From IMG/VR virus record IMGVR_UViG_3300029459_000073, positions 1 through 7,806 of that record: 7,806 nucleotides of DNA; one strand, 5' to 3'. The notes under the pieces are model-generated. The model ran no database searches and was not told where the DNA came from. It was given only the letters and a program-made list of their open reading frames with translations. Below are positions 1 to 7,806 of the stretch, in pieces. Position numbers and translations under genes: made by a program. The stretch comes from a virus. Lineage: Duplodnaviria > Heunggongvirae > Uroviricota > Caudoviricetes. Position 1 is the stretch's first letter. The number at the start of each line of letters is the position of its first letter.

Positions 1-208
1 CAGCAATATCCATGAAAAACTGCTTCGCCTGCTTTTTCGCCTCAGCTTCGTAAAACTCCAGCGTGGCACCTTCAGTACGGTCAAGACTAATCGCCACATT
101 TGGCAACAACAGTGGCGGATACCCACCAATTTCCAGTGCCACAGTAACAGCTATCTTATCCGGGTAATGATTTATCCCTTTTACAACCAGTTCATATTTT
201 TTATTCAT
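1..208 (-). CDS. Hypothetical protein, partial (first 69 codons; gene continues past window position 1). Not a recognisable endolysin N-terminus.
   Basis: Hand translation of the reverse complement from ATG at 208..206 gives MNKKYELVVKGINHYPDKIAVTVALEIGGYPPLLLPNVAISLDRTEGATLEFYEAEAKKQAKQFFMDIA with no stop before the window edge. GGAGAG Shine-Dalgarno lies about 9 nt upstream. It starts 5 nt after the holin stop, so it is probably co-transcribed. Absent from the ORF track only because it is truncated. Confidence 0.45.
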   Translation of the reverse strand, partial: MNKKYELVVKGINHYPDKIAVTVALEIGGYPPLLLPNVAISLDRTEGATLEFYEAEAKKQAKQFFMDIA

Positions 209-212
209 CGCT

Positions 213-428
213 TTACTCTCCCCGCGCCGCCTTACGACGGTCCTCTCTGATTTTGAAATACAGGTTAGTCAGATATGTCAGCAGCCCAAACAGCAGACTT
301 CCCAGTACGCCTATTGCCGCCCACTGAGACGGGGAAACCCTGTCCAGCAGCTGCAGGAACCAGTAGCCCGTCCCCACCGCTGACGTGGTGTATGACACAC
401 CTGTTGTGATTTTTTCCATCTGGTACAT
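213..428 (-). CDS. S: Class II holin (pinholin), phage 21 S21-like, 71 aa, with dual-start MYQM motif
   Basis: The 71-aa product ([71 protein letters not shown]) closely matches my recollection of the phage 21 / DLP12 EssD pinholin, including the C-terminal [15 protein letters not shown] and the [13 protein letters not shown] segment. Two hydrophobic segments are present. GGAG lies about 9 nt upstream of the ATG at 428. Confidence 0.85.
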
Positions 429-503
429 ACCCCGTCTCCCGCAATCCGGAAGCTCACAACAACAAGTGGGGCATCAGCTCACACCGACAGCCCCTGCGCA
501 TGG

Positions 504-773
504 TTACATCATCATTTCGCCGTCAGGCTGAGGCTCACTGCCACCATCAGGCTGAGACACGACACCATCTGAAACAGCACTGTCACCCGCACCGTCTTCA
601 GGCCCGTGAGCAGCCGTTACCCCCAGCAGTTCATCAAGAATGGCATCCACTTCAGCATCAAGACGCGCCTCAAGATTCTGACGAAGTTGCTGTTTCAGTG
701 CGCTCCTGACTTCTTCAGAGCGCAGAACATCCTTCACTGCTTCAGCAGTGACCAGCGATTTTATTTCTGACAT
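504..773 (-). CDS. Hypothetical small acidic protein (89 aa from internal ATG at 773..771 of the 147-aa ORF)
   Basis: ORF track 504..947. The internal start gives MSEIKSLVTAEAVKDVLRSEEVRSALKQQLRQNLEARLDAEVDAILDELLGV followed by a low-complexity acidic tail. No convincing RBS. It lies between nanS-p and the holin, where Stx phages carry small ORFs. Weak call. Confidence 0.25.
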   Translation of the reverse strand: MSEIKSLVTAEAVKDVLRSEEVRSALKQQLRQNLEARLDAEVDAILDELLGVTAAHGPEDGAGDSAVSDGVVSQPDGGSEPQPDGEMMM

Positions 774-810
774 GGTATTTTCTCGTTGAAAGGTGTTGTT
801 AAGAAAGTTG

Positions 811-993
811 CTACGGAATGAGAGGCTCTTCGGGTTTTGTTCCGGCTGACTGACTGGCACTGATTTTCTCAGCGGCCCTTTTGTCAATCTGTCTGCGCCA
901 GAAATCGCGCACTGCCCTGTACCCACCCGAAAGAAGATACAGCACACAGACCGCCGTACAGAAGTACAGCATCACCTGATGAATAAATGTCAT
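811..993 (-). CDS. Hypothetical small membrane protein (60 aa, one predicted transmembrane helix)
   Basis: ORF track 811..993 (MTFIHQVMLYFCTAVCVLYLLSGGYRAVRDFWRRQ...). A hydrophobic stretch is followed by a basic segment. ATG at 993..991 with a weak RBS. Overlaps the N-terminal extension of the 504..947 ORF in another frame, so only one of the two readings can be right there. Confidence 0.3.
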   Translation of the reverse strand: MTFIHQVMLYFCTAVCVLYLLSGGYRAVRDFWRRQIDKRAAEKISASQSAGTKPEEPLIP

Positions 994-1089
994 AGTTTCT
1001 TACCGTTATGGTTGACAATGAGAACTGTTTTCATTTAAAAACCGATATACGAAAGCATCTTTTCTTTACATTCTCCATTGGGATTACCT

Positions 1090-1127
1090 CCGCCAGCTTC
1101 CGTTCCTGCCGCTGGCGGCTTTTTTTA
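1090..1127 (+). terminator. Rho-independent terminator, plus-strand orientation, abutting the nanS-p stop codon
   Basis: Stem CCGCCAGC (1090-1097) pairs with GCTGGCGG (1111-1118) around a 13-nt loop, followed by seven T (1120-1126) on the plus strand. On the minus strand the hairpin is followed by AGGTAATCC, which is not U-rich, so it is orientation-specific. Confidence 0.5.
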
Positions 1128-3089
1128 TCATGCCGCGGCATCCGCGTTGTTCACTTCCACCTTCACACTGTCAATCAGCAGCGTATATGTCGCCGCCTTT
1201 GATATGCCTGTCAGTTGCAGTTTGTCCGCCGCCCCTGATGCCGGAGATTTCACCAGTGTGAACGGCGTCCCCCGTTTCTCATCCAGTACCGGCGTCACCT
1301 GAATGCTGTTGTTTCCGGCAAACTCAAAAGCCAGTGTGTGCCATCCGTTATCAAAGACCCCGAACGTATCCAGCTTCGCATTCGGCTTCTTGTGGTACAT
1401 CGCGTTCAGGTTCGTCGCATCCGTCTGCAGGAAGAAGGACATCAGCATGTCGTTGCCTTCCTCTGCCAGCGTCACTCCCTCCGGCAGGGACGACAACTGC
1501 CAGTAAATGCCCAGGGCAAACCGATTCGGCACCAGTGAACCCGGCAACTTAAACCGTACGCTCACACGTCCCCCCTTCTTCAGTAACTCCACTCCCTGTC
1601 CGGCTGCATCATGCTCCAGAAACCAGATGTGGTTTTCCGGTTTATTCAGTTGCAGGGCCTTACCTCCCGTAGCCCCCGCATCACTGACCACCGCTTCAGC
1701 AATGTTTTTGTTAACATTGTCTCCGCTCGCCGGTTTGTGATAATAGCGCCAGCCCTGTGATGCCAGGTCTTCGCCGGACGCCAGCAGACTCATCAGGGTT
1801 CGGTTACTGACCGGGGCTTCCGGCTCTCTCTCCGTACCTTCACCGGAAGGTCCGGTGGGCTTCACCGTATCAGGCTGTTTTCCGGTAATGAATTCAGCGG
1901 TTCTCCCGGCATGCACAAGAATCGCCGTTGCCAGACGGTCGGAAATAATCCCACGACGTGCCCATGATCCAAAATGCGTTTTACGGTCGGCCGTCGTCCA
2001 GGTTTTGGCGTCCGTTCGACCACCGGCTCCGTAATACCCAATATCCGCAACATCCGGATCTTCTGACGGCTCGTTGGTACCCACATTTCGCCCGTTTTCA
2101 TCCGTCATAAACGGCACAAAGAAGATTTTTTTTGCGGATTTCGTCTTGTATGCACCATACACCGCATCGTATTGCGAAGAATAAGTCTGCTTCCAGTAGT
2201 AGGTCGTGTCGCCACAAATCCAGGGAACCGATGACGGAGAGCCCCCGAGACACTGACCTCCGAATTCCGACAGGTCAGAACGATATTTTTCCACCATGGA
2301 ATCAAACAGCCCCGGCTGAGTGGCGTATGCACCCTGTTTCAAATCAAACTCGCCCTGCATCCAGACCACTGCAAGCAGAATATTTTTAGGGTTAGCCTTC
2401 AGTGCGGCCTGAGTACGGGTAAGCAGGTCCTTGTACAGTGGCTTATCTACACCCCAGCGTGCCGAGGTCTCGCTTGCGCCGGTGGATTCGCTGAAGGTAC
2501 CTTCATCGCCCGCCAAAAATGCAGAACCACCACGGCAGCACGGAACCAGAAGAATACCGGCATTCGCCGGAATAAACGGCAACAATTTCTTCGCGATATG
2601 TAATCCCTGCCCCACGCATCCATACTGAGCTGCGCTGGCTTTCGGGTGTGAAAACTTACTCAAATCCTGAACATCATGCAGGCAGTGGTCCGCAGGAATA
2701 ATGTCATTGTAGTTACAGGACGCACCACCCGGCGTGACAGTGCTGCGACGCGCCAGCTGTTTAATACGCGGGTCCGGACGGTCATATGTCTCCGGCAGCG
2801 GAAGCCCTTCACCATACGCCATACCGTTTGACTGCCCGGCCAGGGCAACAACAAAGTAATACTCCGGGTTGCTGGTGGTGCTGATAACTGCGCCTTCTCC
2901 ATCCGACGGCTTCACCACCACAGGTGTGGTGACATCACCTTCCGCCGCAATGGCCTGCATCAGGGTATAAGGCGTGATGGCCACCGGACTGCCAAATGGC
3001 TGCCACCCCTCCTTCAGTTTTTGTGTCAGTCGCTCCGCAAGGTCTGACGGCGACGCCGCCCTGACCACGTCATAGTGTTTAAATGCCAT
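1128..3089 (-). CDS. nanS: Prophage-encoded sialate (9-O-acetyl-N-acetylneuraminic acid) O-acetylesterase, NanS-p type, 653 aa
   Basis: The N-terminus MAFKHYDVVRAASPSDLAERLTQKLKEGWQPFG matches the DUF1737 start I recall for the 933W-type NanS-p (the yjhS-like gene downstream of stxB). The central region carries the SASA/SGNH-type block VVALAGQSNGMAYGEG. Strong RBS GGGAGG 5 nt upstream of the ATG at 3089. Single uninterrupted 653-codon frame. Confidence 0.88.
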   Translation of the reverse strand: MAFKHYDVVRAASPSDLAERLTQKLKEGWQPFGSPVAITPYTLMQAIAAEGDVTTPVVVKPSDGEGAVISTTSNPEYYFVVALAGQSNGMAYGEGLPLPETYDRPDPRIKQLARRSTVTPGGASCNYNDIIPADHCLHDVQDLSKFSHPKASAAQYGCVGQGLHIAKKLLPFIPANAGILLVPCCRGGSAFLAGDEGTFSESTGASETSARWGVDKPLYKDLLTRTQAALKANPKNILLAVVWMQGEFDLKQGAYATQPGLFDSMVEKYRSDLSEFGGQCLGGSPSSVPWICGDTTYYWKQTYSSQYDAVYGAYKTKSAKKIFFVPFMTDENGRNVGTNEPSEDPDVADIGYYGAGGRTDAKTWTTADRKTHFGSWARRGIISDRLATAILVHAGRTAEFITGKQPDTVKPTGPSGEGTEREPEAPVSNRTLMSLLASGEDLASQGWRYYHKPASGDNVNKNIAEAVVSDAGATGGKALQLNKPENHIWFLEHDAAGQGVELLKKGGRVSVRFKLPGSLVPNRFALGIYWQLSSLPEGVTLAEEGNDMLMSFFLQTDATNLNAMYHKKPNAKLDTFGVFDNGWHTLAFEFAGNNSIQVTPVLDEKRGTPFTLVKSPASGAADKLQLTGISKAATYTLLIDSVKVEVNNADAAA

Positions 3090-3283
3090 GAATCCTCCCG
3101 GCCTGGATAATATTGTGAGTAAAATGAGGAGCGGGCTGAAGTCCGGAAGTTACAGGACAATGGCAGAAGATAGACAACAGCCCGCAATACGAAAAAGGCC
3201 GCGCTATTGCGCAGAGTGATTACTGTCGGATATTATTCGCCAGCTGAAATATTACTTCACGTTTTGTTGTTTATTCCTTGCCG

Positions 3284-3311
3284 CCCGCGTCTCCCAGCGC
3301 GGGATTTTTTT
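3284..3311 (+). terminator. Rho-independent terminator, plus-strand orientation
   Basis: Stem CCCGCG (3284-3289) pairs with CGCGGG (3298-3303) around an 8-nt loop, followed by ATTTTTTTG (seven T at 3305-3311). Confidence 0.5.
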
Positions 3312-3315
3312 GTCC

Positions 3316-3341
3316 ATAAGAAAGCCCCTCCGGAGAGGGGC
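3316..3341 (-). terminator. Candidate rho-independent terminator, minus-strand orientation, back-to-back with the 3284-3311 terminator
   Basis: Stem GCCCCTC (3324-3330) pairs with GAGGGGC (3335-3341) around loop CGGA. On the minus strand it is followed by TTTCTTAT (complement of 3323-3316). The U-tract is interrupted, so this is a moderate call. Confidence 0.4.
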
Positions 3342-3660
3342 TGGAGAGTGGCGCTATGTGCCATTGCATGGTGCCGGGTGCCTCCCGGTGAGTTCAGTAT
3401 CAGCACCTGAACCCGCACAGAAAGGATAAGGGTCGGTGACAAAACACCAGTTGCTGATTGCCCCTCCGCACAGGGGGATTCACCATGCCAGTTTCTTTTA
3501 ACAAACTCCCCGCAAACCAGACAACAGTCAACCGCCTGAATTGTGAGGTATTTAAAAATTTCAACGGGTAACTGATACCCTGCTAATCGCCTGATGCTTT
3601 CTTTTTCAGCAACGGGAAAGCAACAACCACCACACCCACCAGCCGCCCATTTACCACAAA

Positions 3661-3685
3661 TAAAAAAGCCTTCACTGCGGAAGGC
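3661..3685 (-). terminator. Rho-independent terminator, minus strand, overlapping the stop of the small ORF 3672..3869
   Basis: Stem GCCTTC (3668-3673) pairs with GAAGGC (3680-3685) around a 6-nt loop. On the minus strand it is followed by TTTTTTATATTT (complement of 3667-3656). Confidence 0.5.
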
Positions 3686-3869
3686 GTCTGTAACAACCGA
3701 ACTGATAGTCTGCCAGACCCGCCATAACCAGCTGGGTCAGTATTAACTGGCAGCGTTCGCGTGAAAGGTAAGTATTCTGCGCTATCTCCCCGACTGTCGC
3801 CGGTTCGGTGACGCTTAATTCATTAAACACCACTCTGGCGGTTTCTGTCATATCCTGCTGTTTCAGCAT
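3672..3869 (-). CDS. Hypothetical small protein (66 aa from ATG at 3869..3867), possible helix-turn-helix or winged-helix fold, in the Q to nanS cargo slot
   Basis: ORF track 3672..3992. The 106-aa form begins with GTG inside the U-tract of the upstream terminator, so the internal ATG is preferred; it gives MLKQQDMTETARVVFNELSVTEPATVGEIAQNTYLSRERCQLILTQLVMAGLADYQFGCYRRLPQ. A GGGA motif lies about 9 nt upstream. The ORF is bracketed by minus-strand terminators on both sides. No family recognised. Confidence 0.3.
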   Translation of the reverse strand: MLKQQDMTETARVVFNELSVTEPATVGEIAQNTYLSRERCQLILTQLVMAGLADYQFGCYRRLPQ

Positions 3870-3992
3870 GTCTTTTTCCCTTTTCCGGTTAACGTGACAC
3901 ACCAATAACTCTTGTCGAAAAAGCCAGCAACCTGAAAGAACGGTATTAATAACCACCAGCGAATTTATTGCGCTACTGTATATCGCGGACAC

Positions 3993-4013
3993 AAAAAAAC
4001 CACCTTCCGGTGG
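3993..4013 (-). terminator. tR'-like intrinsic terminator about 80 nt downstream of the Q stop codon
   Basis: Stem CCACC (4000-4004) pairs with GGTGG (4009-4013) around loop TTCC. On the minus strand it is followed by seven T (complement of 3999-3993). The position matches the lambdoid PR'/tR' arrangement immediately after Q. Confidence 0.45.
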
Positions 4014-4019
4014 CTTCCT

Positions 4020-4093
4020 TTTGCGAAAAAAACTTGCGTTTCGCCTCGCGATACAGCTTTGCGAAGCTTATACGGATTGAAGCAGTTTATTGA
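4020..4093 (-). promoter_or_regulatory. Expected location of the late promoter PR' and Q-utilisation (qut) site; exact elements not resolved
   Basis: Positional inference from lambdoid architecture (Q stop, then PR'/qut, then tR'). The best minus-strand -10 candidate is TATAAG (complement of 4072-4067), with a poor -35 that overlaps the Q stop codon. Confidence 0.25.
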
Positions 4094-4657
4094 TCAGTTT
4101 GCAACATTTTTCTCTGTAACAAAAGCCATGCGCATGGGGGCATATAACATAAATTCAGATACCCCCAACCATTGATCAATTCGGCGTCTGCACGTAACCA
4201 ACGACCAATCAGGATGATCTGCATTTAACCTTTCGGCCATTTTCAGTTTGCTCATTCCCCGTCCTTCGTACCTTTGCCGGAGAACATTGATTAGCCCGGG
4301 ATATTCCCCAAGCACCTTACTGATAACGCGATCAATAATCAACGCCTCTGTGTCTGTACAATGTGACAACCAGCTCTTCTGCTTTCCTCTTGTCATATCC
4401 CGAAAAAATGCCTCAAGTTCCGGTTTTTCCAGCCCGGATTTCTTCATTCTGCGCAAAACCTCATTAACTGCTGTTTTCGTCAGCTTTTTCGAAACCAGTA
4501 ACCGGTTAAACATATTTCCGGATTTACCCCCACCGATATACGACCACCGCCCCCACATCCGTAATTTCCCCTGGATCCAGACTGCTTCCAGCGTGTTCAG
4601 GCGTAAATGTTCGCCGCTTTTGCCTGTAATTTCCGGATATATCATATTTACGCTCAC
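4094..4657 (-). CDS. Q: Late-gene antitermination protein Q-like (187 aa from GTG at 4657, or 183 aa from ATG at 4645)
   Basis: It occupies the canonical Q position: directly after rusA (6-nt gap) and directly before a tR'-like terminator and the late/lysis region. The protein family was not matched residue by residue from memory, so the call rests mainly on synteny and size. Confidence 0.6.
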   Translation of the reverse strand: MSVNMIYPEITGKSGEHLRLNTLEAVWIQGKLRMWGRWSYIGGGKSGNMFNRLLVSKKLTKTAVNEVLRRMKKSGLEKPELEAFFRDMTRGKQKSWLSHCTDTEALIIDRVISKVLGEYPGLINVLRQRYEGRGMSKLKMAERLNADHPDWSLVTCRRRIDQWLGVSEFMLYAPMRMAFVTEKNVAN

Positions 4658-4663
4658 TCACTC

Positions 4664-5023
4664 TCAATTTTGTAAATCTTCACACCCAGCCNNNNNNNNN
4701 NNNNNACCAGATACTGGCTGACCACGTACAATATTGATTTCATCAAACTGCTCATCGTCCATTAACAGTCCTGCATGCGTCAGCGCATCCAGCGGCGCTT
4801 TCAGGATATTGTCCAGGTCGCGACGGCGCTTATCCGGTGGCTCTGCCATAATCCTGATTACCAGCCTTCCGGACAGGCTTAATTTCAGCCGCTGCTGGCG
4901 AACAATAAGCGCCACAGCCCGGCGATAACGCTTTCCCTCCTCCGAGATAAAATATGTGCTGCCACGGCGTCGCCAGTAAGTGTTCACCGTCGGCGGGTAA
5001 GGTAAAACCAAATCTATGAGCAT
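4664..5023 (-). CDS. rusA: Crossover junction endodeoxyribonuclease RusA (Holliday junction resolvase), about 119 aa, interrupted near the C-terminus by an N-run
   Basis: MLIDLVLPYPPTVNTYWRRRG...PPDKRRRDLDNILKAPLDALTHAGLLMDDEQ matches the RusA signature I recall from DLP12 RusA (LPWPPS.N.YY..., DRRRRDLDNLQKA.FDALT). Strong RBS AAGAGGTGA 5 nt upstream of the ATG at 5023; the track's start at 5026 is a GTG one codon further up. The C-terminal sequence after 4705 is uncertain because of the N-run at 4692-4705. Confidence 0.85.
   Translation of the reverse strand: MLIDLVLPYPPTVNTYWRRRGSTYFISEEGKRYRRAVALIVRQQRLKLSLSGRLVIRIMAEPPDKRRRDLDNILKAPLDALTHAGLLMDDEQFDEINIVRGQPVSGXXXXXAGCEDLQN
4692..4705. 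other. Run of 14 ambiguous bases (N), an assembly gap or masked bases inside rusA
   Basis: Literal n characters in the sequence. True length and content are unknown. Confidence 0.95.
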
Positions 5024-5035
5024 CACTCACCTCTT

Positions 5036-6082
5036 TTACCCAAGCACGCCAGTTGCAAAGGCGTGATCAAGAAAACGAAAAATTAAATCAACCTGAGAAC
5101 CATGCTTTTCTTCGAACGCCAGAGGATCCGCATGAAGCTCGTTGTGATGCTCCCGACACAGCGGTAGCGTGAAAATATCGTGAGATTTTGTCCCCATTCC
5201 GCCCTGACCATGACCAATCAGGTGATGGGGATCGTCGGCTGGCTTACCACAACACGCACACGGCTGTGTCTTCACCCAGCGTGTGTATTTCTCGTTAACC
5301 CAGCGGCGACGTTTAGGTCGTTTCATGAAAGATTCCGGAGACTCAGGATCAACGGCAATGCTGACCACCGTCTTTTCCTGTGGTGGGTTCTGTTGCTGGT
5401 GGGCGTGAGNNNNNNNNNNNTTTTTTGTGCGCTGTTTCAGTATGCTGGTGGCGGTCTGCTCTCCCGGTACGATGTCGCTTTCACGGTACATTGAGCGGAT
5501 TTTTTCCGCACGCAACCCCAGCGAACGACGTAATACCGCTTCCGGTAGCGCGTCCGCCACCTGATTGTGGACCGCCCACCAGGATAATTCAGCCAGCGAT
5601 AATTCCCGCTCCTGTGTGCCATTCATTGCGTGACGAATGACGTCAATCATCCATGCTGACAAGTTTTGGTGAGCAAGTTGCTCAAGTGATTCGGAGGTCT
5701 GGTCACGCAACTGGTTGTCGCAGTGCCAGCACAACACCATTGCGCCGGTACCATAACGGTGAATGACGGTTTCGCTGTGATGATAATCGCCGTGTGGCCA
5801 CTGGCAGGATTTAATATGGCGCAACAGCCAGTCAGACAATGCACCAGCACCACCAGCAGCACGAATCACCCGTGCGTTACTGAAAAACGGCAGCAATGTT
5901 TTGTCTTCCACCAGCGGCTGGCGAACGGCAGGAACGACCCCGGACGGCAGATTACGCATGCTTTTCGGTTCCGGCTCCACCAGTACCCGGGTATTGTGGA
6001 ATACCGGCATGGATTCACGGCCCGGCTTAACGATCACCAGCCCGAGTTCCGGTACCAGAACAGGTCGAAGTAATACTCGCAC
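5036..6082 (-). CDS. ydfU: DUF968-family prophage protein (YdfU-like) with a C-terminal Cys/His HNH-like motif, 348 aa, interrupted by an N-run
   Basis: Size and position (between the Rem-like ORF and rusA/Q) match the K-12 Qin ydfU as I recall it. The C-terminus carries CACCGKPADDPHHLIGHG...LPLCREHHNELH, a CxxC...HH...CxxHH arrangement. GTG start at 6082 with strong GGAGGT 3 nt upstream; an alternative ATG is at 6010. The internal N-run at 5410-5420 makes the frame across it unverified. Confidence 0.8.
   Translation of the reverse strand: MRVLLRPVLVPELGLVIVKPGRESMPVFHNTRVLVEPEPKSMRNLPSGVVPAVRQPLVEDKTLLPFFSNARVIRAAGGAGALSDWLLRHIKSCQWPHGDYHHSETVIHRYGTGAMVLCWHCDNQLRDQTSESLEQLAHQNLSAWMIDVIRHAMNGTQERELSLAELSWWAVHNQVADALPEAVLRRSLGLRAEKIRSMYRESDIVPGEQTATSILKQRTKXXXXXHAHQQQNPPQEKTVVSIAVDPESPESFMKRPKRRRWVNEKYTRWVKTQPCACCGKPADDPHHLIGHGQGGMGTKSHDIFTLPLCREHHNELHADPLAFEEKHGSQVDLIFRFLDHAFATGVLG
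5410..5420. other. Run of 11 ambiguous bases (N) inside the DUF968 gene
   Basis: Literal n characters in the sequence. Confidence 0.95.
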
Positions 6083-6083
6083 G

Positions 6084-6362
6084 TTACCTCCAGATGCGTT
6101 GCTGGAATGTGCGGGACGGACGCGGTGAGCGTTCGGAGTAAGGAAGCCTGACGGAGATTATCCAGTGACGATAATCGAGGCTGAGGGCTTTCTTAATCTC
6201 GTATCCGTGTCTGCGGTAGCACTGAATTAGCCACTCGGCCTGTTCTTCAGTGCATGGGGGATGCTGGAACCAGTCAGATTTGAAAGTGCGGGAACGCCGC
6301 CCGTGCCTGCTGGCAAAGACGGCAGAATCATCAGAATTGTGTAATTTGGTATCGTGCGCCAT
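6084..6362 (-). CDS. Hypothetical small protein (92 aa from ATG at 6362..6360), possibly Rem-like, translationally coupled to the DUF968 gene
   Basis: ORF track 6084..6491. The 135-aa form would contain the strong terminator at 6435-6461, so the internal ATG is preferred; it gives MAHDTKLHNSDDSAVFASRHGRRSRTFKSDWFQHPPCTEEQAEWLIQCYRRHGYE.... The stop TAA (6086-6084) is followed by C and then the GTG start of the next gene. The position corresponds to rem in my recollection of Qin gene order. Confidence 0.4.
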   Translation of the reverse strand: MAHDTKLHNSDDSAVFASRHGRRSRTFKSDWFQHPPCTEEQAEWLIQCYRRHGYEIKKALSLDYRHWIISVRLPYSERSPRPSRTFQQRIWR

Positions 6363-6434
6363 CGGTTGTCTCTGCTGGCGCAGCAGGTGCCAGTTGTTCA
6401 GGCTGGCGTGCGAATTGTAAACCAGAATGCCAGG

Positions 6435-6461
6435 AAAAAACAAAACCCGCCGAAGCGGGTT
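6435..6461 (-). terminator. Strong rho-independent terminator ending the hok transcription unit
   Basis: On the minus strand: 7-bp stem AACCCGC/GCGGGTT with a UUCG tetraloop (loop complement of 6451-6454), followed by TTGTTTTTTCC (complement of 6443-6433). Confidence 0.6.
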
Positions 6462-6500
6462 ACGTGCGGGTGCGTTGAGGATGCCTGACACATCAGAGGT

Positions 6501-6522
6501 GGCGAGGGATTTCTCCCTCGCC
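6501..6522 (-). other. Perfect 9-bp stem-loop 8 nt downstream of the hok stop codon (candidate 3' mRNA structural element)
   Basis: GGCGAGGGA (6501-6509) pairs with TCCCTCGCC (6514-6522) around a 4-nt loop. No U-tract follows on either strand, so it is not called a terminator. Confidence 0.4.
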
Positions 6523-6529
6523 GGGTCTC

Positions 6530-6685
6530 TTACTCCTCAGGTTCGTAAACTGTGAAGACAGCGACCTCCGTCTGGCCGGTTCGGATTCGTACCTCGCAGA
6601 GGTCTTTCCTCGTTACCAGTGCCGTCACTATGACGGTTAAACAGATGACGATCAGGGCGATTAACATCGCCTTTTGCTGCTTCAT
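6530..6685 (-). CDS. hokD: Hok/Gef-family type I toxin (small membrane toxin), 51 aa, HokD/RelF-like
   Basis: MKQQKAMLIALIVICLTVIVTALVTRKDLCEVRIRTGQTEVAVFTVYEPEE has the Hok hallmark (hydrophobic helix, LTRK.LCE.R motif, conserved Cys) and closely matches my recollection of K-12 HokD (RelF). RBS AAGGAG about 9 nt upstream of the ATG at 6685. The track ORF 6530..6742 adds a 19-codon in-frame upstream extension. Confidence 0.85.
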   Translation of the reverse strand: MKQQKAMLIALIVICLTVIVTALVTRKDLCEVRIRTGQTEVAVFTVYEPEE

Positions 6686-6861
6686 AGCCTGCTTCTCCTT
6701 GCCTTTCGGCACGTAAGAGGCTAACCTACATGTGTCTAGCATGAAATTGGCCTCAGATTAATGTTAAGCGTCTTGCAGGACGCGTAATGTTAACTGGGGC
6801 TTTTCTCTATCTGCCTTTTGGTATTCATGCCTGAGACAGATAGCCTCAAGCACCCGCAGCA

Positions 6862-6889
6862 ATTCTACTTAACTATCCTTTCCCCGCAA
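6862..6889 (-). promoter_or_regulatory. Candidate sigma70 promoter for the hok mRNA
   Basis: On the minus strand: -35 TTGCGG (complement of 6889-6884), 16-nt spacer, -10 TAGAAT (complement of 6867-6862). This predicts a leader of roughly 170 nt, comparable to known hok mRNAs. By-eye match only. Confidence 0.3.
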
Positions 6890-6976
6890 ATCGTTTTTAT
6901 CCCCAGCGACAAATCGAATACACCACCAGCGCCACCGCCATTGCGATCCCTACCGTTGTGAATGCCTCAGGCCAGG

Positions 6977-7321
6977 TCATCGTAAAACATCCTCTGCGCT
7001 TATCAGTCCGTTTCGCTTCAGGTAGTCCATCGCCTTACCCGGCAATTTACAGTCCGGCTTCGTTTTCCTCAGTTGCCAGGTTAACTGCTTTACCAGCATG
7101 GTTAACTCGTCGACCAGACGCTGATGTCCCACTGGTTTGTATTCATGCAATTTACCGGCTGGCTCTGCTGCCAGCGATGCCAGTGCGATTTCCAGAACAG
7201 CAATATCTATCTTATATGTGCGGATGATGTCATGGTCGATTGTGCCCGGTATGCACAGTCTCTGTGCTTCAATAGTCTCCTCTGCGTGAGCTATTAACTG
7301 CTCTCTGGTAAAAGTGGTCAT
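6977..7321 (-). CDS. Hypothetical protein, 114 aa, second gene of a two-gene cassette upstream of hok
   Basis: ORF track 6977..7321 ([114 protein letters not shown]). Its ATG overlaps the stop of the upstream gene by 4 bp (ATGA at 7318-7321), which suggests translational coupling. No family recognised. Confidence 0.5.
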
Positions 7322-7806
7322 GCCGCGCTTCCTTCTTGCTTATTAACGATTACACCGTCATATATTTCATTAAGGTGTCCCCTCAACTCCATGCGCCTTA
7401 ATGCAGACAACATGTAATCGCATTCAACCTGCTTATTTCCAGTAAATGGCTTATCGTCAGGATCACCCCAACAGCAATTACCCTTGGGCCACCCATGTAC
7501 TTTCCGTACTCTTCCGTTAACAACGTGAAGTAATCCCCAGCCAGGTGGTAAATCCTCAATTGAAATAATTCCCGGCTCACTAATAAAGAATCTCCAGTCG
7601 CCCATGCCAAGAGAGGGATTTTTACGGAAACGCTTTTTTCTATCTGCCAACAAGTCAGCACGAGAACACTTCGCCTCTATCAGGCATGATGCTGAATTTC
7701 TGAATCCCATAGCATCTGGCTGTTCTCCGGTACTGGTTACAGCAACAAAGCGGTCATGAAAGCAAACCTTGAACCCGTTGCGCTTAAGGAACCTGTACGC
7801 AATCTG
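7318..7806 (-). CDS. Hypothetical protein, partial (C-terminal 162 or more aa; reading frame open to the window end at 7806), Cys/Trp-rich C-terminal region
   Basis: Hand translation shows the frame of ORF 7318..7710 stays open upstream to 7806 (...[53 protein letters not shown]...[58 protein letters not shown]). The listed ATG at 7710 is therefore probably internal. No family recognised. Confidence 0.5.

Follow-up and report, generated by a model that had tools for sequence, protein, structure and literature searches.

The stretch of DNA analyzed here, hereafter the window, comprises the 7,806 nucleotides at positions 1 to 7,806 of IMG/VR virus record IMGVR_UViG_3300029459_000073 (Caudoviricetes). 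It carries a late region of the lambdoid type, with the gene order read along the minus strand (Table 1). A Q-like late antiterminator gene (Pfam DUF1133, 348 bits; Phage_antitermQ, 31.9 bits against a cutoff of 26; PHROG 753 "anti-termination protein Q-like," E = 1e-75) is followed by an interval of about 1 kb and then by a nanS-p type sialate O-acetylesterase gene, whose counterpart is annotated in matching genomes as a SASA family esterase. Within the interval lie a candidate late promoter (PR') and terminator, a 65-codon open reading frame (ORF), the scar of a deletion, an STnc100-family small RNA (sRNA) gene, and, on the opposite strand, a probable second sRNA gene. A preliminary description of this DNA had recognized a gene order like that of Shiga toxin (Stx) phages, with the nanS-p cargo kept. 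Both points hold, as the interval is syntenic with the Q-to-nanS-p interval of Stx phages and the esterase gene is present. We consider it very probable that the interval is the PR'-proximal insertion site for morons (extra cargo genes) of a lambdoid, Stx-phage-like prophage and that its cargo has been deleted.

The interval (positions 3090 to 4093) contains no transfer RNA (tRNA) gene detectable by ARAGORN or, at an E value of ≤1, by Rfam, and the T-loop motif GGTTCRANYC is absent from it. The ORF listing for these positions holds nothing longer than 106 amino acids (aa), the largest ORF being an in-frame extension of the 65-codon one, and no similarity to the stx2AB block of the Stx2a phage Stx2_14040 was found. 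The two hallmarks of Stx-converting phages, stxA/stxB and the ileZ, argN, and argO tRNAs, are both missing from the interval, and a search for remnants of stx or tRNA genes (ARAGORN, Rfam, blastn, and the T-loop motif) returned none. These results agree with the preliminary description, which had seen neither an stx-sized ORF nor a tRNA-like T-loop. It had also placed the small ORF between minus-strand terminators and noted a back-to-back terminator pair at 3284-3341; we recovered the former as hairpins at 4013-3990 and 3685-3668 and the latter at 3284-3303 on the plus strand and 3342-3323 on the minus strand. In total, 7 terminator-like sites were found in 2900-4300, compared with 1.8 ± 1.4 in shuffled sequences. 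Three elements had been overlooked: a full-length STnc100 gene, returned by the same Rfam scan that found no tRNA, the probable convergent sRNA, and a remnant of a DUF3927 gene.

To locate the cargo position, we used blastn with Stx2_14040 (LC567818) as the reference Stx2a phage. Window positions 3970-3632, which contain the small ORF and its terminator, align with positions 1825-2163 of the phage locus (L003) at 94.1% identity, and window positions 3546-1899, which contain STnc100 and nanS-p, align with positions 5001-6669. Between the breakpoints at 3632 and 3546, Stx2_14040 holds 2,837 bp encoding a DNA methylase, tRNA-Met/Arg/Arg, stx2A, and stx2B, whereas the window holds 85 bp. The Stx2 phages (Sakai Sp5/933W and Stx2_14040) otherwise share the order of the window, namely, Q, PR'/terminator, (small ORF), slot, STnc100, convergent sRNA, nanS-p, and holin. 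They differ from it in carrying the methylase, tRNAs, and stx, and in the type of Q, which is a 187-aa DUF1133 protein in the window and a protein of 127 or 144 aa in those phages. The place of the small ORF is taken in Sp5 by StxS; the window gave no blastn match to StxS (Sp5 positions 1846-2103), which is linked to the 144-aa Q and not to a DUF1133 Q. The convergent sRNA of the window also differs from the AsxR of Sp5. The preliminary description had taken the small ORF as the sole coding candidate in the stx position, a view that has to be abandoned: the ORF lies upstream of the cargo slot, in Stx2_14040 as well, and is therefore not replacement cargo. Its broader proposal, that the stx position carries other cargo or none, stands insofar as the slot is reduced to 85 bp and its cargo is gone; the slot nevertheless retains a DUF3927 3' end, and the ancestral cargo was probably not stx.

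The evidence for what was lost comes from Escherichia coli E23, in which Q (273 aa) is followed by the same small ORF, a DNA methyltransferase, tRNA-Ile/Arg/Arg, TerB, DUF3927, two copies of STnc100, and the esterase. Window positions 3970-3632 correspond to positions 996-1334 of the E23 locus (L012) and window positions 3649-3321 to positions 3493-3821 (98.5% identity), while the 2.16 kb between the two aligned blocks of E23 is missing from the window. The two alignments overlap at an imperfect direct repeat, which reads GCTGGTGGGTGT on the left and GCTGGTGGCGGGTGT within DUF3927. The long form contains this repeat twice, and in the window a truncated coding sequence (CDS) is joined at it; together, these features point to the loss of ~2.16 kb. 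Recombination at this 12- to 18-nt imperfect repeat would have removed the N6/N4 DNA methylase, tRNA-Ile/Arg/Arg, terB, and the 5' two thirds of DUF3927, and the deleted allele would afterwards have been shuffled behind several unrelated Q modules. Non-Stx prophages of the E23 type, which is common among the O157 Sp prophages, share with the window the small ORF (with one conservative C-terminal difference), the DUF3927 3' end, STnc100, and nanS-p. The window differs in that the 2.16 kb stretching from the small ORF terminator to about codon 33 of DUF3927 is missing, and the convergent RNA of E23 is of the AsxR/AgvB/EcOnc03 type. The tandem STnc100 copies of E23 (L012 positions 3595-3821 and 4078-4300) have diverged from each other and are 98.5% and ~92% identical, respectively, to the window copy.

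In Stx2 phages, which are without the DUF3927 stretch, homology to the window begins only at 3546, past the DUF3927 stop codon. The presence of this stretch in the window and its absence from Stx2 phages argue that the immediate ancestor was of the terB/DUF3927 type and not an Stx phage, and the lost cargo was thus probably not stx. We regard as improbable a history in which the slot formerly held stx and tRNAs and the prophage is an ex-Stx phage that lost its toxin genes. The flanks do match the Stx2a phage Stx2_14040 (94% on the small ORF side and ~75-82% on the STnc100/nanS-p side), and stx-negative derivatives of Stx phages exist, as exemplified by vB_EcoP_phi296, which keeps three tRNAs directly before STnc100/NanS. 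However, the window retains 49-67 nt of the DUF3927 3' end with a 98.5% match to the terB-DUF3927 type, a stretch missing from Stx2 phages, and it bears no detectable remnant of stx or tRNA genes. In vB_EcoP_phi296 itself (L006 positions 4193-4972), tRNA-Met/Arg/Arg lead directly into STnc100 and NanS, and stx, terB, and DUF3927 are all absent, indicating that the slot has been emptied by more than one route. The opposite direction of change, with the short form as an ancestral, never-filled site and the longer forms arising by cargo insertion, appears very improbable to us. It would fit the Q-to-S interval being a recognized moron insertion site (PMC4104026) and the occurrence of several differing breakpoints (3596, 3563, 3546, and 3641), but the 17 start-less DUF3927 codons joined at the repeat are the signature of a deletion, and the methylase comes next after the small ORF in other genera.

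Table 1. Features of the window, in order along the minus strand
Feature	Position	Strand	Details
hok/sok	sok 6855-6680	minus	Rfam sok, 120.7 bits
DUF968 gene	6082-5036	minus	
RusA gene	5026-4664	minus	
Q-like late antiterminator gene, 187 aa, DUF1133 type	4657-4094	minus	Pfam and PHROG
Candidate PR', across the Q stop codon	4104-4067	minus	-35 TTGCAA 4104-4099, 17-nt spacer, -10 TTCAAT 4081-4076
Q-to-nanS-p interval, ~1 kb	4093-3090	read on minus	
First intrinsic terminator past Q, candidate tR'	4013-3990	minus	GCCACCGGAAGGUGG + U7
Winged-helix protein gene, 65 aa	3869-3672	minus	phrog_331, E = 1.4e-37
Intrinsic terminator over the small ORF stop codon	3685-3662	minus	Hairpin 3685-3668, 6-bp stem then UUUUUUAUUU; -9.5 kcal/mol
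Putative deletion junction	3632-3649		Imperfect direct repeat GCTGGTGG(C)GGGTGT; 18-nt overlap of the two E23 alignments
DUF3927 gene 3' remnant	3633-3583	minus	Last 17 codons, VVVVAFPLLKKKASGD + stop; 98.5% identity to the 3' end of the E23 DUF3927 CDS
"Empty slot," 85 bp	3631-3547		blastn breakpoints versus Stx2_14040
STnc100-family sRNA gene (Rfam RF02076)	3517-3312	minus	cmscan 143.2 bits, gathering score 47, E = 1.5e-32
Candidate convergent sRNA, ~69 nt	~3243-3311	plus	GU-rich 5' part, terminator 3284-3303 + U7
Predicted convergent sRNA promoter	3207-3236	plus	-35 TTGCGC 3207-3212, 18 nt, -10 TATTAT 3231-3236
Weak terminator-like hairpin in the nanS-p 5' leader	3214-3199	minus	Overlaps the -35 of the convergent promoter
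nanS-p type sialate O-acetylesterase gene	3089-1128	minus	Pfam DUF1737 + SASA + DUF6645
S21-type holin gene	428-213	minus	

The Q gene appears to travel separately from the DNA downstream of it. Homology to the window starts at 3960-4016 in 28 related contigs that carry 3-4 unrelated Q types, and, for several of these Q types, the upstream sequence examined has a U-run hairpin that coincides with this boundary or shortly precedes it. These observations suggest that Q, its promoter, and the first terminator form one exchangeable module and the DNA from ~3970 downstream another, and it is mainly on this basis that we infer the position of PR' across the Q stop codon. The candidate -10 is followed by a second -10-like hexamer, TATAAG, at 4072-4067, and the layout TTGnnn-17-TTnAAT is kept across four diverged DUF1133-Q lineages, Salmonella included. 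In Sakai Sp5, the PR' start site has been mapped by differential RNA sequencing next to the Q stop codon (PMC7547250); an independent recheck using the RNase E site (+173) and the 3' end (+258) placed it ~22 nt past that codon. The hairpin at 4013-3990 forms when the 88-nt segment 3985-4072 is folded to its minimum free energy (-30.4 kcal/mol in total), and it marks the end of the exchangeable Q module. Following the lambda/Stx paradigm, PR' would be constitutively active in the lysogen, with transcripts stopping at the first hairpin after a leader of ~80 nt and the hairpins at 3685-3668, 3342-3323, and 3214-3199 serving as back-up terminators. Upon induction, Q would load onto RNA polymerase at PR', and the modified polymerase would pass each of the four minus-strand terminators and go on to transcribe nanS-p and the lysis cassette, a mechanism that we infer by analogy.

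The small ORF downstream of this module belongs to a PHROG family that different sources name "TrmB family" or "DprA-like winged helix." Its 334 homologues come from Escherichia, Shigella, Salmonella, Klebsiella, Citrobacter, and Buttiauxella. Relative to Salmonella, the ratio of nonsynonymous to synonymous substitution rates (dN/dS) is 0.04 with a dS of 1.39, indicating purifying selection, and the ATG and Shine-Dalgarno sequence are conserved, as is a AGAGTTATnnGTnTGTCA block upstream. The 106-aa extended reading, starting at a GTG at 3992, was discarded in light of the in-frame stops that Klebsiella and Salmonella carry just 5' of the common ATG. An AlphaFold2 (AF2) model of the 65-aa protein has a predicted local distance difference test score of 90.3 and a helix-helix-helix-strand-strand (wing) topology, and Foldseek aligned it with winged helix-turn-helix domains of the IclR/MarR type at template modeling (TM) scores of 0.77-0.81. 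The DNA-binding role raised as a possibility in the preliminary description thus gains a predicted fold of the corresponding type, and a DNA-binding regulator is the most likely reading of the model. Foldseek returned only generic winged-helix matches. The top ones were N-terminal domains of small-molecule O-methyltransferases, which we discounted since the fit of IclR and MarR domains was equal or superior; suggestive as such a match is beside an adjacent DNA methylase, we did not accept it as evidence. NCBIfam and PADLOC searches with the protein gave nothing meaningful, and a PDB sequence search with its profile gave nothing below an E value of 0.3.

Outside the deleted lineage, the gene is always accompanied by an N6/N4 DNA methylase gene. 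Downstream of no fewer than three unrelated Q families, it is the first gene past the Q-linked terminator, and an N6_N4 DNA methylase gene follows ~150 bp after it in Klebsiella and Salmonella prophages, E23, and Stx2_14040. In Klebsiella and Salmonella, the order is Q, winged-helix gene, and N6_N4 methylase, with a Q family that varies (PF06323 or DUF1133). This methylase partner is deleted in the window. In Salmonella, Q and the winged-helix gene are separated by an additional lipoprotein-like moron of 139 aa, which is equipped with its own terminators. One database protein of 73 aa, annotated as DUF3927, matches the first ~54 residues of the small ORF at 100% identity, as if a separate deletion between the small ORF and DUF3927 genes had fused them.

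The position of the ORF raises the question of whether it is a protein gene at all. It occupies the place of StxS in Sp5, flanked by an early hairpin and a strong terminator, and a terminator overlaps its stop codon, as might be expected if it were the body of a PR'-tR' leader RNA, the counterpart of an StxS-like sRNA. We find this extremely improbable in view of the low dN/dS at a dS above 1 relative to Salmonella, the conserved translation start with in-frame stops just upstream of it in other genera, the confident AF2 winged-helix fold, and phrog_331 membership. The protein-coding and leader RNA roles could, moreover, coexist.

The STnc100 match on the other side of the slot is full length (model positions 1-206 of 206), and its terminator at 3342-3323 is the minus-strand half of the back-to-back pair. 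In Sp5, STnc100 (L004 positions 3923-4128, 207.7 bits) lies 75 nt 3' of stx2B, and the window copy is in the same position. The location in Sp5 agrees with a published report (PMC12370729) and with EcOnc27 of Tree et al. (PMC4104026). Strain EDL933 has eleven STnc100 copies, all transcribed in lysogeny broth and one verified by Northern blotting (PMC5331693), and EcOnc27 and AsxR bind Hfq, in the case of EcOnc27 as shown by cross-linking and analysis of cDNA (Hfq CRAC, PMC4104026). Because STnc100 homologues are transcribed in enterohemorrhagic E. coli (EHEC) (PMC5331693, PMC4104026), the interval does not match the conserved noncoding spacer without a transcribed product that the preliminary description had considered as a counterexplanation. 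Upstream of STnc100 is a conserved block, CTCACAATTCAG-N3-GTTGAC(A/T). By analogy with its homologues, the STnc100 RNA of the window is probably made from its own promoter and acts as an Hfq-type riboregulator. In lambdoid prophages of enteropathogenic E. coli (EPEC), the sRNA PasD is encoded directly upstream of a sialate esterase gene and was related to STnc100 by the authors of that study (bioRxiv 10.64898/2026.05.13.724894); this PasD/STnc100 arrangement, with the sRNA directly 5' of the esterase gene, is also that of the window.

A second sRNA gene probably faces STnc100 on the plus strand. In Sp5, AsxR (RF02703, 88 bits) is encoded on the opposite strand, back to back with the STnc100 terminator, and in an alignment of nine loci the plus-strand segment 3207-3311 of the window falls exactly at the AsxR position. 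The promoters align column for column (TTGCGC-18-TATTAT in the window versus TTGCGC-18-TAAAAT in Sp5), and the terminator at 3284-3303 with its U7 (-13.4 kcal/mol) aligns with that of AsxR. The RNA lacks the conserved 42-nt 3' region of AsxR/AgvB, which it resembles only loosely in the alignment, and the Rfam Esr41 model gave no match at an E value of ≤10 in the 181-nt stretch searched (3180-3360). Tree et al. (2014, PMC4104026) described convergent sRNA pairs, falling into related but nonidentical groups, from many O157 prophages, where they lie between a moron and a conserved ORF. Like those pairs (EcOnc27 with AsxR/AgvB/EcOnc03), the window has two facing sRNA genes with back-to-back terminators between the moron site and the esterase ORF; its plus-strand RNA is predicted to be longer (~69 nt) than AsxR/AgvB and has a GU-rich 5' part, which resembles the GcvB seed. 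The stretch is conserved in 992 of 5,426 complete E. coli genomes (18%) and is never annotated. The RNA would be made from the predicted promoter and act as an Hfq-type riboregulator. We put forward only tentatively, as a possibility we would not bet on, that the winged-helix protein and this RNA are two uncharacterized elements with functions of their own: the protein as a controller of the methylase or of late read-through, perhaps expressed in the lysogen within the PR'-tR' unit like StxS, and the RNA as a new allele class of prophage anti-sRNA/riboregulator.

Several observations weigh against our interpretation of the interval. The layout of the window is predicted from its sequence, and the direction of change at the slot, deletion versus insertion, is read from the truncated DUF3927 fragment only. 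The hexamers of the candidate PR' are weak (4/6 and 4/6), and a generic promoter scan made no call at this site. In Sp5, PR' transcription continues beyond a comparable early hairpin as far as +258, which yields StxS (PMC7547250); by analogy with this read-past, the small ORF could sit inside the PR'-tR' unit, and there are several tR' candidates. For STnc100, the upstream sequence gave no canonically spaced -10/-35 pair by which to fix the promoter and 5' end. The matches of the winged-helix protein to Pfam TrmB (18.0 bits, cutoff 25.6) and MarR_2 (14.7 bits, cutoff 27) are both under threshold, and the protein is not a demonstrated member of either family. The Rfam models for AsxR (RF02703) and AgvB (RF02702) had no match at an E value of ≤10 on 3180-3360, which, together with the shared position, suggests a different allele at the same slot. 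This RNA is also nearly invariant in sequence, so there is little covariation with which to evaluate its structure.

Beyond the interval, the window is a mosaic, as its best whole-window match among E. coli genomes reaches only 94% identity across 89% of its length. Identity to Sakai Sp5 is 91% over the nanS-p leader plus the initial ~110 nt of the gene (3214-2982, minus strand), compared with ~70% over the remaining gene, and this sharply conserved block might serve as a recombination anchor or as a regulatory leader. On the 3' side of nanS-p are DUF1378 and then the S21-type holin, with the endolysin beyond the window but present in matching genomes. The stretch between nanS-p and the holin (429-1127, minus strand) carries DUF1378 and a DUF826-like ORF and matched no Rfam family; the sRNAs PasA and PasC have been reported from EPEC at the equivalent position. 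On the far side of Q, a hok/sok type I toxin-antitoxin locus spans 6530-6855 (minus strand), and its 51-aa Hok-like ORF (MKQQKAMLIALIVICLTVIVTALVTRKDLCEVRIRTGQTEVAVFTVYEPEE), annotated as hokD in a matching E. coli genome, terminates at 6530. A weak Rfam match to IsrK (6440-6521, minus strand; 27.8 bits, under the gathering score of 50) directly 3' of hok overlaps the start of the ORF at 6491-6084 and is probably a mere terminator-like hairpin. Runs of masked N at 4692-4705 (RusA) and 5410-5420 (DUF968) produce X in the translations and leave the finding unaffected.

The deleted arrangement is not confined to this record. The small ORF, scar, and STnc100 are contiguous in 199 of 5,426 complete E. 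coli genomes (best identity, 99.2%, in strain 2012EL-2448) and in the temperate phage PhiR5_1 (PV340545). In these, the small ORF, scar, STnc100, and nanS-p are as in the window at 97-99% identity, whereas the Q module differs (127/131-aa Q); the elements are annotated merely as "hypothetical protein." The exact 35-nt junction occurs in 28 IMG/VR contigs, with a 131/127-aa Q upstream of it in 12, a Q82-like protein in 8, a DUF1133 Q in 5, and another Q in 1; a scan of GTDB representative genomes for the exact junction gave no match. Every element of the interval belongs to a kind already described, and the arrangement is ordinary and largely known. The current understanding of lambdoid late regulation is unchanged. 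The value of the finding lies in annotation: seemingly empty Q-to-nanS-p spacers of stx-negative prophages carry one known and one probable riboregulator together with a conserved small regulator-like gene, elements that pipelines call "hypothetical" or leave unannotated. In addition, the exact junction is a simple marker that distinguishes prophages that lost the methylase-tRNA-terB-DUF3927 cargo from true ex-Stx phages and is useful for inferring the prophage history of Shiga toxin-producing E. coli (STEC) and EPEC.

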